DNA of 64,000 bases, taken from NCBI GenBank assembly GCA_944381215.1, contig CALWKF010000007.1:1173-65172 (forward strand), read 5' to 3'. This document shows, piece after piece, positions 48,032-53,618 of the stretch; position 1 is the stretch's first letter; every line of letters begins with the position of its first letter. The notes under the pieces are model-generated. The model ran no database searches. It saw only the letters and a program-made list of their open reading frames with translations, and was not told the DNA's origin. Source of the DNA: an uncultured Clostridia bacterium. Its GTDB lineage: Bacteria; Bacillota; Clostridia; Christensenellales; UBA1242. A program made the translations under genes and the position numbers.

Positions 48032-48337
48032 CTAAATCTCCTTATCTAAAATATGTTTAATTTGTGATGCCAAATGCTGATTTGAAATTCCTACTGCTTT
48101 ACAATTCTCCGTATTTAACGCTTGGTCCAGCGTCATGTACTCCATTTTGTGCAATGGTATTTTTTTATTTATGGAAAGGTAGCACATTTCCTCATAAAGA
48201 TTATCCGAGGCGGTGTCGCAAACTAATAAATAATGTATTTGATTTATTGCTTTTTTTATGTTATCCAGTCCATAAATGATGCCGTTTGCCTTCTTTGCGA
48301 GGCCTAGATATCTACAAATCTCCATTTCCATTGACAT
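48032..48337 (-). CDS. L7Ae-family RNA-binding protein (YlxQ-like)
   Basis: Conserved position between ylxR and infB. LAKKANG...G motif. Start among the three ATGs at 48337, 48331 and 48325 is uncertain. Confidence 0.7.
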   Translation of the reverse strand: MSMEMEICRYLGLAKKANGIIYGLDNIKKAINQIHYLLVCDTASDNLYEEMCYLSINKKIPLHKMEYMTLDQALNTENCKAVGISNQHLASQIKHILDKEI

Positions 48338-48581
48338 ATTCCTCCAATTTATCGTAAATAGTCCCAATATCGCATTGTAACGCGCGCTCTAGGGCCTTTT
48401 TCTTTCTGGCAAGGCGAATTACTTCGAGAGACTTCGAAATATATACTCCCCTACCACTGATTTTTTTGAAGTTGTCAATCTTGATGCCATTCTCGGTTTT
48501 TACTAACCTAATTAGTTGTGATTTTGGCAACATCTCTCTTGTCGCGCAACACATACGAAGTGGCTCGGCTTTTTTATCCAT
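48312..48581 (-). CDS. ylxR: YlxR-family (DUF448) RNA-binding protein
   Basis: PLRMCCATRE...GRGVYI motif. Start set at MDKKAEPL, with AAGGAG upstream. Confidence 0.8.
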   Translation of the reverse strand: MDKKAEPLRMCCATREMLPKSQLIRLVKTENGIKIDNFKKISGRGVYISKSLEVIRLARKKKALERALQCDIGTIYDKLEEYVNGNGDL

Positions 48582-48591
48582 TATTAACTCC

Positions 48592-49743
48592 TTAGACTCC
48601 TTGAATATCCTCGAAGATATCAATGTCGCTGTCGGGATTGTCGCTATCAAATCTTGATGTAAATTCCTGAACTTGCTTGCTCTGCTCCTCTTTTGCATTA
48701 CTCGACTCGCTCTTTACATCGATTCGCCAACCAGTGAGTTTTGCGGCCAGGCGAACGTTACCGCCGTCTTTACCAATTGCGAGGCTAAGTTTGTTGTCAG
48801 GCACAATAACCTTGCTGGTCTTTGCCTCTTGATTGATTTCGACGCTGATAACCTCGGCAGGACTTAATGCATTTGCAATGTATTCAAATATGTCATCATC
48901 GTAAAGCACGACATCGATGCGCTCCTTGTTACCAATCTCGCTCTGAACGGCATTTATACGTGCCCCATGTGCACCAACAATTGAGCCAACTGGGTCAACA
49001 TTTGGGTTCGTACTAGCGACACTGATTTTAGTCCTAATACCAGCATCACGCGCAATACCCTTAATAACCACATCGCCAGACTGAATCTCAGGTACCTCTA
49101 ACTCAAATAGCTTACGCACAAAACTAGGTGTGGTGCGTGTTACTTGAATCTCTGCATTGCCAAAAATATTGTCGTGCACGCGCTTAAATAGTACCTTTAT
49201 GTGCTGGCCAATCTCGAGGTTCTCGCCTGGAATGATGTCGCGCTGATTTAACACGCCCTCTTTTTCCATACCGCTCAATTCAACGTAAACATTTTCGTTG
49301 TCCTTTCTACGTACAATTGCGGTAGTTAACTGATCGTTTTTACTATTCATCTCGGCACTCAAATTTTCGCGCTCGGCCTCGCGAAGCCTCTGCATAATGA
49401 CCTGCTTTGCAGTCTGTGCAGCGATTCTACCAAAATTCTTTGGCGTAACCTCTTCGGAAATAGTGTCGCCTACCTTGTAGGAGGGCTTAATTTTCTTGGC
49501 TTCTTCAAGACTAATTTCCTTATCGGGGTCCTCGACCTCATCCACAATAGTCTTATATGCGTAGACTTTTATGGTGTTTTTCTCGGGATTTAGCTTTACA
49601 GAAGCACTACGAGCCTCACCAAAGTTTTTCTTGTACGCGCTAACGAGTGCACTCTCCAATGCGGAAATAAAGAACTCCTTGTCAATTTTCTTTTCCTGTG
49701 CTAATTGATCTAGTGCTAAAAAGAAATCTTTACTATTAATCAT
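48592..49743 (-). CDS. nusA: Transcription termination/antitermination factor NusA
   Basis: N-terminal domain, S1, and two KH domains ([12 protein letters not shown]..). Confidence 0.95.
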
Positions 49744-49774
49744 TTAATCAAAACTCCTGATTGATTATTAAAAG

Positions 49775-49801
49775 TTATGAGTGGGCACAACCCACTCATA
49801 A
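49775..49801 (-). terminator. Leader hairpin/terminator between promoter and nusA start
   Basis: ttatgagtggg ttgtg cccactcataa followed by CTTTTAAT. It lies downstream of the candidate promoter and about 30 nt before the nusA ATG. Confidence 0.5.
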
Positions 49802-49813
49802 GTCTTCGAAATT

Positions 49814-49842
49814 ATTGTAACACAAAAATTCATAAAAATCAA
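49814..49842 (-). promoter_or_regulatory. Candidate nusA operon promoter (TTGATT-17-TACAAT)
   Basis: Hexamers at 49842-49837 and 49819-49814. Confidence 0.5.
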
Positions 49843-49858
49843 TAGTTTTATACACTAA

Positions 49859-51409
49859 TTATATCAATTTTATAAAAACTTTTGCAGTAGCATAGGCATC
49901 GGCTAGTGCGCGGTGGGCATTTACAAGAGTAATATTTAAGGCTCTAACTACTGTACCGAGTTTATAATTGCTAAGACTCGGCACCTTGTCCCTCGCAAGT
50001 CGCAGGGTATCAATCTGCTCGTTATCAAATAAAAGGCGCAGTCTATTTCCGTTATTAGATAAGAATTGATAGTCGAAGTCGATGTTGTAGGCACTCAAAA
50101 CCGAGCCATAAGTAAACTTATAAAAATCGGGCAAAACTTGGTCAATTGAGGGCGCATCAACAACCATTGAAGTATCAATATGCGTAATCTCGGTGATTTC
50201 CTCTGGAATGGGTTCGCCTGGGTTAATTAGCGTTTGAAAAGTTTCGATAATCGAGCCTTTTTTAATCTTTACTGCGCCTATTTCGATAATTTTACAACTG
50301 CGAGCATCGAGGCCTGTAGTTTCAAAGTCGAACACAACAACAGTATCATGTGTGTCCCAGTAATCTGTCTGCTTTTCGGTTAAGCTAAACAGGTCTATTT
50401 GCTGAATTTCACTGACTGGCTTGGGGGTAACAAAGTAGTATTTTGAGTTGACCTTGCGGTATACCCGTTGAAGTTCTTTTGTCTTAACCTCGCAGTTTGC
50501 CAAGCCCTGAGCCTTGATATTCAAGCGGTCGTTAAAAATACTCACAGTGCCACTTACAATCAACTCGGTGCCCTCGGTAATCTTTTCGAGTTTTTCGACA
50601 TCCTCGTCCTTTGGGAAAATTACAACATCGACCTTCCCGCTCGGGTCGCGCAGAGTAAATGTAAAACGTTTCCGCTCCTCTGGCTCTCCACCATCCACTC
50701 GTGATTTACGCGTAAAGGTAGTAATCATTGGCGACAACACTGTACCTGCTAAAACGACAGTCTGCCCGTTTTCGTGTGGCAAATCAGTTATAAGTATCGG
50801 GTGCTCCCCCGTATACTTTCCGTAAATGGATGCGCCAGCCTCGACCTCGAATTTATTTATCTCCTTTTCTTTTTCGAGGCAATAATTTAGGCTCGTGGTG
50901 GCGTCTTCAGGCTTTGAAATTAAGTCGTCAAGCGATATATTTGTTTCCTTTTCCTGAACCGATATATCGAAGTTGATAAAAAACTTGTGCTTCATAAATT
51001 TTTCTAATGAGGAAATAAAGCCCTTATTTTCCAGCACTTGTTTCGTCATTGTATCACAATGGAACACAATGCTTGCGCCCTCATTGCTTTCAAAAATTTC
51101 GATATCCTCGGGTGCAAACACGAGGCTGAGTGCCTTATACTCGGTATCAAAATATTCCTCAATTCGCTTTCTAATAACATCTGCATCAAAGCAACTCTTA
51201 TTAAATTTCACAGTTACTGCGCAAAGGCCATTTATATCAGTAGTGATTGTCGACTTGATACTTTCGCGCTCTTCATCTGTGAGGGGCGCAGAGTCGGGAT
51301 ACACAAAATTAATGGTGCACTCATCCCCACTTTGCGAATAGGTACAACTATCCAACTTTAATTTATTATCGTCAAAACCTAATTCTTTTAACTTTTGTAA
51401 TGTACTCAT
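49859..51409 (-). CDS. PolC-like N-terminal + OB-fold + DEDDh 3'-5' exonuclease protein (no PHP or polymerase domains)
   Basis: The C-terminal 170 aa carry Exo I VFDFETTGL, Exo II AYNIDFDYQFL and Exo III HRALADAYA. The central segment VVLAGTV...FTFTLRDPSGKVDVVIF...LIVSGTV is OB-like, as in PolC domain II. The gene lies in the polC slot between rseP and nusA. Confidence 0.7.
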   Translation of the reverse strand: MSTLQKLKELGFDDNKLKLDSCTYSQSGDECTINFVYPDSAPLTDEERESIKSTITTDINGLCAVTVKFNKSCFDADVIRKRIEEYFDTEYKALSLVFAPEDIEIFESNEGASIVFHCDTMTKQVLENKGFISSLEKFMKHKFFINFDISVQEKETNISLDDLISKPEDATTSLNYCLEKEKEINKFEVEAGASIYGKYTGEHPILITDLPHENGQTVVLAGTVLSPMITTFTRKSRVDGGEPEERKRFTFTLRDPSGKVDVVIFPKDEDVEKLEKITEGTELIVSGTVSIFNDRLNIKAQGLANCEVKTKELQRVYRKVNSKYYFVTPKPVSEIQQIDLFSLTEKQTDYWDTHDTVVVFDFETTGLDARSCKIIEIGAVKIKKGSIIETFQTLINPGEPIPEEITEITHIDTSMVVDAPSIDQVLPDFYKFTYGSVLSAYNIDFDYQFLSNNGNRLRLLFDNEQIDTLRLARDKVPSLSNYKLGTVVRALNITLVNAHRALADAYATAKVFIKLI

Positions 51410-51417
51410 TTTTTACC

Positions 51418-52548
51418 TCAAATAAATAAATGATAAATATCTACAAACAGGACTAGGGCAAACAATATAATCAGCCCCGCAAAATGAATGTAGCCCTCAA
51501 CCTTGCGGTTAATTGGTTTGCCCCGAATCCACTCAATTAGCGTAAACAACATTCGCGAGCCATCGAGCGCGGGTATTGGCAGTATGTTAAATATAGCGAG
51601 ATTCGCCGCGATAAAAGGTAGGAACACAAACAGGTTTGCGATATTTTGTTGCGAATACTCGGCAATAGTCGAGATTGTGGTAAACGGCCCGCCGACATCC
51701 GCAATGCCAATACCTCCTGTAAGCAACATCCACAAGAAAACTAGAACCTTCCACGCAAACGCGGCTGCGAGTGGCACACACCTCGAAATCGCCTCGACAA
51801 AGTTATGCTGGTACGGCACTGTTGAAAAACCGACATACAGTCTAGTTACATCAGTTCCATCGGCATCCGCCTGAGTATAGACGTAGAGGTTTGCCATAAT
51901 CTCTTGCGTTTCGCCATCACGCTCGATTGTTAGACTTAGATTATTGTAGCACTTATAGGTAATATCGTCAATCGTTACCTCGGTAAAATTCGCCTTTTCC
52001 TCCTCGGTCATACTGCTGTAATGCTGATTTAAGAGTTCGTTTGCGGTGTTATCAGTGATAAAATCGATAGTTACCCCATCAATTTCGCGTATTATATCAT
52101 TTTGTTGCAAATTCGTTTGAAAATCGGGGTTGACTTCGTTAATTTTAGGGATATCATAGCCGAAGCCGATTAGCAATATAAAGGCAAAAATGATAGCAGA
52201 GACAAAGTTGAAAAACACGCCACCAAATTGGACAATTAGGCGTTTCCACGGCTTTTGATTGTTAAAGGCCTTAGGGTCGGGGTCATCTTCATCCTCCCCT
52301 GCAAATGCACAATATCCGCCCAGTGGAATGATACGAATGCTAAACAATTCGCCCGATTTTAGTCGCTTTTTAAAGATTGCCTTTCCAAAACCAATCGAGA
52401 ATTCCTCGATTTTAAAGCCAAGCCACTTTCCAAAACTATAGTGGCCAAACTCGTGGATGGTAATCATCAAAAGTAAAACTAAAATCGCTAGCAAAATGTA
52501 TCCAATCGTCGTCATAACACTGGCAAAACTAGCGAGCATAAAAACCAA
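51418..52548 (-). CDS. rseP: RIP metalloprotease RseP (M50)
   Basis: HEFGHY, a PDZ-like middle region, and a C-terminal NLLPIPALDG-type motif (FNILPIPALDG). Confidence 0.9.
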   Translation of the reverse strand: MVFMLASFASVMTTIGYILLAILVLLLMITIHEFGHYSFGKWLGFKIEEFSIGFGKAIFKKRLKSGELFSIRIIPLGGYCAFAGEDEDDPDPKAFNNQKPWKRLIVQFGGVFFNFVSAIIFAFILLIGFGYDIPKINEVNPDFQTNLQQNDIIREIDGVTIDFITDNTANELLNQHYSSMTEEEKANFTEVTIDDITYKCYNNLSLTIERDGETQEIMANLYVYTQADADGTDVTRLYVGFSTVPYQHNFVEAISRCVPLAAAFAWKVLVFLWMLLTGGIGIADVGGPFTTISTIAEYSQQNIANLFVFLPFIAANLAIFNILPIPALDGSRMLFTLIEWIRGKPINRKVEGYIHFAGLIILFALVLFVDIYHLFI

Positions 52549-52616
52549 AAGTCAACCCTCCATATGCAAACTAATGCGGTACCTTAACAGCCCGCATTAG
52601 TAATATTTTATTCAAT

Positions 52617-53618
52617 TTATACAAAAAGTATTACAAAGAAAATGAACACAAAGACGGCATTGACAAGCAGTCCGTTGCACCTATCCATCACGCCACCGTG
52701 GCCAGGAATCAACTGACTGAAGTCCTTTACAACGGCACGACGCTTGAAATACGAACTAAACAAATCGCCTGCCATATTAAATATTCCACAGAAAATACCG
52801 CCGATAAAGAATGTCCAAATATTTACATCGATACCGCTAGAATTAAAAAGCATATTGTATGGCGCAAATGCATTAAAGATTGCAAAAACTACAATGCTAC
52901 CGATAATAGCACCAATAATTCCGCCGATGAGCCCAGTCCAAGTTTTCCCAGGACCCAGCTTTTCCATACTTATTTTAGGGCCTTTTATTAACCTGCCAGT
53001 CAGCATTGCGAAGGTGTCGGCACACATACTGGTAACAAACAATAGCACCAACCCCATGAGGCCAAAGTCGACCCCGCGTGCTTGGAATGCCGCAGCGGTT
53101 TCCGAAATGCTCATTTGTCCAAAGTGATTGATAATAAAGGCAAAACTAAACAAGAATGTCGGCCACAGACACACAAAAATTGTGTTCATTGCCTTTGAGA
53201 ATGAGTAGTACGCAAGTGAGCCCTGGAACCCATCACCAACTCTTAGTTTATTGCCCCATTTGCTAAAAATCATAGGAGTCGCAAAGAGTATTACGAACAT
53301 TACCACTAAAATTGCCAAGCAGAATAATACAAAGTAGTAAAAATTCAGGGCACTATTTGCACATATTGCAATCAGTAAAAAGCAAAGTATCGGGTACAGC
53401 CCTACTGGTGTAGTCCAGGTAGGCCTGTCCATTTTATGAAGCAAGTTTTCTACCTCATAGGCGCAGAAAATCATAAGCGCGCCAATTAACAAGTCGAACA
53501 CGTAGTTGTTCAACTCACGCAAAAAGAAGCACCCCACTAAAACAATCAAAATAATTGCACCCGAAATGATGCGAGGCCACCACTTTGCTGGGGTGTTTGC
53601 TATTTTTTTATTCTCCAT
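52617..53618 (-). CDS. cdsA: Phosphatidate cytidylyltransferase
   Basis: Polytopic protein with the C-terminal signature S.FKR...KD.S.LIPGHGG.MDR. Confidence 0.85.
   Translation of the reverse strand: MENKKIANTPAKWWPRIISGAIILIVLVGCFFLRELNNYVFDLLIGALMIFCAYEVENLLHKMDRPTWTTPVGLYPILCFLLIAICANSALNFYYFVLFCLAILVVMFVILFATPMIFSKWGNKLRVGDGFQGSLAYYSFSKAMNTIFVCLWPTFLFSFAFIINHFGQMSISETAAAFQARGVDFGLMGLVLLFVTSMCADTFAMLTGRLIKGPKISMEKLGPGKTWTGLIGGIIGAIIGSIVVFAIFNAFAPYNMLFNSSGIDVNIWTFFIGGIFCGIFNMAGDLFSSYFKRRAVVKDFSQLIPGHGGVMDRCNGLLVNAVFVFIFFVILFV

Follow-up and report, generated by a model that had tools for sequence, protein, structure and literature searches.

PolC, an antibiotic target, is regarded as the essential replicase of Firmicutes and as their hallmark. 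Its N-terminal domain (NTD) consists of NI and NII, two KH-like subdomains, and is notoriously divergent. Here we analysed a stretch of 64,000 nucleotides (the window) from an uncultured Clostridia bacterium of the Christensenellales (GenBank assembly GCA_944381215.1, contig CALWKF010000007.1), in which the place of polC between rseP and nusA is taken by a gene for a protein of only 516 amino acids (aa). The protein combines an NTD, an OB fold and a DEDDh 3'-5' exonuclease (Exo) and has no polymerase. It is almost certainly what remains of PolC, and it may serve as a clamp-tethered proofreader in replication by DnaE1. We refer to the gene and its product as the remnant.

The exonuclease module of C-family replicases is known to have been gained, lost and moved, especially in Clostridia. 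Some Clostridia are DnaE1-only, some clostridial PolC lack the exonuclease, and a DnaE1 with an N-terminally fused exonuclease occurs in Bacteroidetes (Timinskas et al. 2013, PMC3919608). In these variants the polymerase was kept, whereas the remnant shows the reverse, an exonuclease retained without its polymerase. The same study proposed that the PolC NTD contacts the clamp loader and described a conserved putative epsilon-binding patch that is retained in clostridial DnaE1 (PMC3919608). A further precedent comes from B. subtilis, where the PolC exonuclease complements DnaE3 in trans, as cited in a 2026 survey of bacterial polymerases (PMC12926913). There, as we propose for the remnant, a PolC-type exonuclease corrects a separate DnaE-type polymerase; the difference is that the exonuclease acts from within an active PolC, whereas no PolC polymerase exists here. 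The survey was based on complete genomes and discarded truncated sequences (PMC12926913). Neither PMC3919608 nor PMC12926913 was found to describe a stand-alone NTD-OB-Exo remnant, nor did a full-text literature search turn one up, and public annotations of the short proteins read '3'-5' exonuclease' or 'hypothetical'.

Domain architecture and descent from PolC

The open reading frame (ORF) of the remnant is uninterrupted, and its coordinates, like those of the domains and neighbouring genes, are given in Table 1. Pfam detected an OB fold (tRNA_anti-codon, PF01336, residues 246-301, E 9e-10), an RNase_T domain (PF00929, residues 358-512, E 1e-36) and nothing else. Neither a PHP domain nor a polymerase core was found by Pfam to flank the exonuclease, in the ORF or in its neighbours, and the polymerase core domain PF07733 has no match in the remnant. 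The ORF ends 12 residues past Exo III and 115 bp before nusA, which leaves no room for a polymerase domain downstream. The exonuclease carries all three motifs (DFETTG, NIDFDYQF and HRALADAY), and residues D361, E363, D446, H499 and D504 are invariant among 82 homologs with 32-85% identity to the query. Its scores lie above the cut-offs for DEDDh exonucleases, with 127 bits versus 24 for PF00929 and 109.9 versus 71.5 for the dnaq domain of TIGR00573. ORF, Pfam and motifs agree in this with a previous sequence-only reading of the window, which had described a 516-aa gene with an OB-like segment and a complete DEDDh exonuclease, but without PHP domain or polymerase, between rseP and nusA.

Homologs of ~510-550 aa (the short family) and full-length PolC were collected from genomes of the same order and compared by profile-profile alignment (hhalign). 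The short family as a whole aligned collinearly with residues 19-580 of the 1441 residues of PolC (probability 100%, E 1.9e-67), and the N-terminal 345 residues alone were matched to full PolC with 98.5% (E 2e-15, residues 15-308 to 33-324, again collinear). The OB fold alone matched PolC residues 217-322 (97.2%, E 2.9e-11). NTD, OB fold and exonuclease are therefore found in the same order as in PolC (NF001688/TIGR01405; 3F2B, 9QPC) and are collinear with its N-terminal 40%. Two parts of PolC are missing. The PHP-N segment (ELHLHT..TDHG, ~75 aa) has no counterpart in the short family, which has a linker of 47 aa instead, and the ~860 aa past Exo III, comprising PHP-C, palm, thumb, fingers, HhH and the C-terminus, are lost.

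The exonuclease of the remnant is most similar to those of PolC. Its best NCBIfam match is PolC (PRK00448/NF001688, positions 414-584, 174.5 bits), and in a sequence search of the PDB the Thermotoga PolC exonuclease 2p1j came first (E 2e-31), followed by full-length PolC 9qpc. In an exonuclease-only tree the short-form exonucleases grouped beside PolC exonucleases and apart from the paralogous DEDDh domains, but the support values are weak (84, 74 and 28) owing to an alignment of only 162 columns. The structure model is in line with these results. An AlphaFold2 (AF2) model based on the 82-sequence alignment (mean predicted local distance difference test, pLDDT, 87.9) consists of two alpha/beta modules (pLDDT ~85-92 at residues 1-150), an OB barrel, a low-confidence linker and the exonuclease, and the best Foldseek match of the whole model was full-length PolC 9qpc over 385 columns (E 3e-19). 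The NTD alone gave weak matches (E ~1e-3) to tandem alpha/beta modules, namely ring-building motifs (RBM) of PrgH and KH domains of NusA. Only such weak KH- or RBM-like matches were obtained because the PDB contains no PolC NTD; they are uninformative for membership, but the modelled fold is consistent with two KH-like subdomains.

The genomic position also corresponds to that of polC. In PolC-bearing relatives the ancestral slot of the order reads cdsA-dxr-rseP-ispG-polC-rimP-nusA, and the short gene is located at the same place. The sequence-only reading had given this order as cdsA-(dxr)-rseP-proS-polC-rimP-nusA, of which cdsA, dxr, rseP, polC, rimP and nusA could be confirmed, while ispG stands where proS had been expected. 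It had further proposed to compare the N-terminal part with PolC and to place the exonuclease phylogenetically; the former yielded the 98.5% match described above and the latter a weakly supported position beside PolC. Its suggestion of a PolC-derived free proofreading subunit is thus supported by the collinearity of the N-terminal 345 aa, by the exact polC slot and by the purifying selection described below.

Three observations speak against a PolC origin as far as the NTD is concerned. Firstly, the match of the NTD alone to PolC is modest (77.5%, E 1.9e-5, residues 15-149 collinear with 33-170). Secondly, none of the 82 short-family members matches the Pfam domains NI and NII (PF14480, PF11490). 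This is not decisive, since genuine PolC of the same order match them only partly, with NI in two and NII in three out of six sequences, within the aligned stretch. Thirdly, a search of the NTD-OB profile against 1.84 billion representatives returned no full-length PolC among the top 150 matches, and the link of the NTD to PolC therefore rests on profile-profile alignment and synteny and not on matches of an HMM to single sequences. On the combined sequence evidence we consider the PolC origin of the gene near certain, and the remnant is in all likelihood a vertically inherited positional ortholog of polC. By defining features it falls outside the PolC family, since it has neither polymerase nor PHP domain and stays far below the whole-protein cut-offs (174.5 bits versus 873 for NF001688 and 150 versus 1043 for TIGR01405).

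Polymerases, distribution and selection

The genome containing the window (1.22 Mb in 22 contigs, estimated 94% complete) encodes a single PF07733 match, a DnaE1 of 1186 aa on contig C1 that is of the PRK06826 type (1355 bits, above cut-off). A search for a second PolC in this genome with the PolC model returned only the remnant ORF and pieces of DnaE. Both dnaN and a full-length polA are present, and the remnant is the only RNase_T domain found in the genome by profile search. DnaE1 retains all nine metal ligands of its PHP site (HHDHEHCDH) and is the sole Pol III alpha in every short-form genome examined. Among 41 relatives the short form was found together with exactly one Pol III alpha in 17 of 17 species of the genus, in seven of eight other sampled genera of the family and in five further families. 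By comparison, the sampled families with a PolC of 1416-1474 aa all carry DnaE1 as well (11 of 11), and thus two Pol III alpha.

Across 201 surveyed genomes of the order the short form occurred in 16 families (f1, 8, 11, 13, 16, 17, 19, 21, 23, 24, 29, 31, 34, 36, 40 and 42), with genomes of 0.8-2.6 Mb, and full PolC in about 25. Not one of the 201 genomes contained both forms and no family was mixed. A single branch separates the short form from PolC with 100% SH-aLRT in the DnaE1 tree as well as in the NTD-OB-Exo tree, and the gene tree of the remnant is congruent with that of DnaE. This fits a single truncation followed by vertical descent, which would have taken place in a common ancestor of 16 or more GTDB families, whose members are uncultured Christensenellales-like Clostridia, mostly from the gut. 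When residues 1-350 were searched against 399 genomes of the class, matches were confined to the order of the window, although the sensitivity of a single sequence is limited on so divergent a region. The short family comprises at least 388 members at 90% clustering, and the NTD-OB profile matches 434 clusters at 50% identity.

Between two closely related species (G007 and G010) dN/dS is 0.035 overall, the values by domain being 0.078 (NTD), 0.036 (OB fold) and 0 (linker as well as exonuclease). In the lineage of the window the exonuclease is the most conserved part, with dN = 0 in this pair and a pN of 0.023 versus 0.156 for the NTD in another comparison (G000 versus G005). These substitution patterns indicate a functional gene under strong purifying selection. 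The sequence-only reading had argued against a decaying pseudogene from the intact catalytic residues and the uninterrupted frame.

An additional, non-PolC paralog of the DEDDh exonucleases is encoded in some relatives (G001:C17:3212-3691, a 435-aa ORF, G031:C5 and G034:C10) and absent from the genome of the window. In family f4 the full-length PolC (L042, G027:C6) contains a catalytically dead exonuclease domain at residues ~392-551, with YSLRTTG replacing DFETTG, TNALKEA replacing HRALADA and the DxxD of Exo II missing. The weak E-values of other f4 genomes suggest that their PolC exonuclease is likewise dead.

A clamp-binding-type motif in the linker

The linker between OB fold and exonuclease is variable apart from Q337, which is invariant in the 82 sequences and is the first position of a short motif, Q-x-[DNS]-[LMF]-[FL]. 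This motif is located 23-26 residues (30 in one case) upstream of DxETTG in all 117 full-length homologs; 93 of them fit the regular expression, and the remaining 24 have close variants recognised by eye. In the AF2 model it lies in the part of lowest confidence (pLDDT 64-67 at residues 330-350).

The beta-clamp consensus is QL[SD]LF, with positions 1, 4 and 5 being critical (PMC3919608). Within the order, DnaE1 carries an internal GQ[MLFV]SLFD motif, and full-length PolC ends in NQLSLF at its extreme C-terminus, i.e. in the part that the remnant has lost. A weight matrix built solely from these DnaE1 and PolC motifs of the order had its top match at the linker motif in 77 of the 117 short proteins, where ~3 would be expected by chance, and the median score of the linker motif was 7.25 bits versus -1.5 for the best site elsewhere in the same proteins. 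By sequence, the linker motif thus resembles the clamp-binding motifs of DnaE1 and PolC of the same order. While the clamp motif of PolC is C-terminal, the clamp-type motif of the remnant is found between OB fold and exonuclease.

Proteins reduced to NTD and OB fold

In one member of the family of the window (G021; L032, G021:C2, 5004-6032, minus strand) the protein consists of NTD and OB fold only. It has 338 aa and stops precisely where the OB fold does, and no RNase_T domain was found anywhere in that genome. This protein belongs to a sub-family of at least 14 clusters with lengths of 293-339 aa, all of which end in ...G[VI]SFCE[LM]. One of them (P0215, 311 aa; L097 434-1369) is a complete gene that directly follows rseP and is itself followed immediately by a sigma-factor gene in convergent orientation. 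In the NTD-OB tree all 14 clusters group together (98% SH-aLRT, a single change), and they have diverged to pairwise identities of 29-54%, with the ORF retained. None of the 14 carries the clamp-type motif, which suggests that linker motif and exonuclease were lost together and that NTD-OB alone remained under selection. The remnant has no homolog among the matches in another genome of the family (G018, genus g3; 0.8 Mb at 90% completeness), whose rseP-nusA slot was not inspected, and only a weak RNase_T-like ORF of 253 aa (27 bits) was detected there. G018 may represent the end point of a reduction series.

As a tentative scheme, to which we give less than even odds, these forms can be arranged as a stepwise shedding of domains, from PolC (~1440 aa) to NTD-OB-clamp motif-Exo (~516 aa), then to NTD-OB (~310 aa) and finally to nothing, with each stage being fixed and long-lived. 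If this was true, NTD-OB of PolC would be a replisome module in its own right, able to function without polymerase or exonuclease, and an epsilon-like clamp-tethered proofreader could arise by truncation of a replicase and de novo gain of a clamp motif.

Proposed function and alternative explanations

We propose that the remnant is a clamp-tethered accessory 3'-5' exonuclease of a replisome that uses DnaE1 only, with a separate, non-catalytic role of NTD-OB. In this scenario polC would have lost its PHP domain and the whole polymerase core including the C-terminal clamp motif, leaving DnaE1 to replicate alone, and the linker would have gained a clamp-binding-type motif. The motif might dock the remnant on one protomer of the DnaN clamp beside DnaE1, like epsilon of E. 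coli, while the OB fold and possibly the NTD would anchor it to template single-stranded DNA (ssDNA) or to the clamp loader. The exonuclease could then edit in trans, excising mismatched 3' ends for DnaE1 and perhaps also for Pol I. An additional role of the NTD-OB half that needs no exonuclease is assumed because one sub-clade dropped linker, motif and exonuclease yet kept NTD-OB.

A close parallel is DnaQ (epsilon) of E. coli, also an unfused DEDDh exonuclease in a system that replicates with DnaE1 only, with a short clamp-binding-type motif in a flexible segment beside the exonuclease. However, the remnant is of independent origin, from PolC, and its motif lies upstream of the exonuclease instead of downstream. 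DnaQ carries a C-terminal alpha-binding peptide, whereas the remnant ends at Exo III and reaches only 72 bits versus 222.7 with TIGR01406, and the remnant in turn has an extra NTD-OB module of 310 aa. The partner polymerases differ as well, since the PHP site of DnaE1 is inactivated in E. coli and intact here.

Several points count against this explanation. With the PHP site of DnaE1 intact, a second proofreader is not obviously needed, and the sub-clade of the G021 type, which has no DEDDh exonuclease, shows that the exonuclease is dispensable in some lineages. The linker motif departs from QL[SD]LF at position 2, with Q, M or I for L, and often has N at position 3. It could also be an intramolecular element, as a short helix is predicted at residues 340-344. 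Because of the intact PHP site and the NTD-OB-only sub-clade, we assign the clamp-tethered trans-exonuclease function a probability of only about 0.6.

The strongest alternative is that the main selected function is non-catalytic, with NTD-OB acting as a replisome scaffold or ssDNA adaptor (contacting e.g. DnaX) and the exonuclease being an optional passenger. The single origin of the NTD-OB-only sub-family, its termination exactly after the OB fold in what is a complete gene in P0215, the retention of the ORF over considerable divergence, and the G021 genome without any RNase_T domain are all expected under this explanation, and the clamp loader contact proposed for the PolC NTD (PMC3919608) favours it too. 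On the other hand, it does not account for an exonuclease that is the most conserved part of the protein in the lineage of the window, for the invariance of all catalytic residues, or for a clamp-type motif that travels with the exonuclease. We therefore regard it as unlikely, but it partly overlaps with the accessory-exonuclease explanation and the two are not exclusive.

Less probable still is a general 3'-5' exonuclease of repair or recombination (of the ExoX, ExoI or DinG N-terminal type) that is recruited to clamps behind the fork and does not proofread for the replicase. Non-PolC DEDD models score close to the 174.5 bits of PolC (PRK07883 170 and PRK06807 163 bits in NCBIfam), Foldseek matches include the DinG exonuclease and ExoX, and DnaE1 has a PHP proofreader of its own; moreover, as the only DEDDh exonuclease in a 1.2-Mb genome the remnant may have taken over housekeeping 3'-end processing. 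Direct descent from a replicase proofreading domain with NTD and OB fold of the replicase kept, the persistence of the gene in the polC slot and the likeness of its motif to the replicase motifs of the same genomes argue against such a role.

The remaining possibilities, that polC was split or relocated, that the gene is a decaying pseudogene or that the assembly is broken here, have a negligible probability, and only the draft state of the genome could be invoked for them (22 contigs, 94% complete). They were rejected on the genome search, the survey of relatives and dN/dS. The remnant is located in the interior of a 65-kb contig, the same ~510-550-aa ORF recurs in ~100 independent assemblies, some of them with 3-9 contigs and 99-100% completeness, and the split or relocated gene and the broken assembly that the sequence-only reading had considered find no counterpart in 16 or more short-form genomes, each with DnaE1 as the one Pol III alpha and without a C-terminal half of PolC.

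A large and abundant gut clade has dismantled PolC while keeping selected pieces. This shows that clostridial DnaE1 is able to serve as the sole replicase, which bears on a question that PMC3919608 raised for the PolC plus DnaE1 system. The clade offers a natural dissection of PolC, in which NTD-OB is available for study on its own as well as joined to the exonuclease, and a possible evolutionary route to epsilon-like proofreading subunits. In addition, the clade would escape both PolC-based markers and inhibitors that target PolC.

Genomic neighbourhood

All genes surrounding the remnant in the window are located on the same strand, with frr-uppS-cdsA-rseP upstream and nusA-ylxR-L7Ae-infB-rbfA downstream (Pfam). 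The start codon (ATG) of the remnant follows 8 nt after rseP and its Shine-Dalgarno sequence overlaps the stop codon of rseP, and rseP and remnant are therefore probably co-transcribed.

Table 1. Coordinates of the remnant, its domains and neighbouring features in the window.
Feature	Residues	Position	Strand	Basis
polC-slot gene, NTD-OB-linker-Exo (stop codon included)	1-516	49859..51409	-	ORF, Pfam, hhalign
NTD, two tandem alpha/beta modules and low-confidence spacer; corresponds to PolC NTD (NI+NII)	1-185	50855..51409	-	AF2, hhalign
OB fold, homologous to PolC OB domain	186-308	50486..50854	-	Pfam, hhalign
Flexible linker (47 aa), in place of PolC PHP-N	309-355	50345..50485	-	hhalign, pLDDT
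Clamp-binding-type motif QQIDLF	336-341	50387..50404	-	conservation, weight matrix
DEDDh 3'-5' exonuclease, ends right past Exo III	356-516	49862..50344	-	PF00929, PRK00448, 2p1j
rseP, M50 protease; conserved upstream neighbour of polC in the order		51418..52548	-	Pfam, synteny
nusA, conserved downstream neighbour; rimP missing between nusA and remnant		48592..49743	-	Pfam, synteny
Shine-Dalgarno sequence GAGG, overlaps rseP stop codon		51416..51419	-	sequence inspection

Besides polC itself, the slot in the window has changed in that dxr, ispG and rimP are also absent. Relatives such as G017 and G030 carry rimP at the position of the spacer between remnant and nusA. In other families dxr is found between cdsA and rseP and ispG/gcpE between rseP and polC, and both are absent at this locus across the whole of family f1 (window 51418-53618 compared with L027-L031 and L033-L041). 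Their absence from the f1 locus suggests that genes of the MEP pathway were lost or relocated in f1, although uppS and cdsA were retained.

The spacer itself (49744-49858) contains a promoter-like site, TTGATT-17-TACAAT, and a hairpin at 49775-49801 on the minus strand with a perfect stem of 12 bp, followed by CTTTTAAT and located ~30 nt ahead of the nusA start. This hairpin could be a terminator of the rseP-remnant transcript or an attenuator in the leader of nusA. Further downstream (window 48032-48698) the ylxR (DUF448) ORF overlaps the L7Ae-like ORF by ~55 nt and the end of nusA by ~100 nt, and since these are the longest ORFs, the true starts in this region are probably located further downstream.

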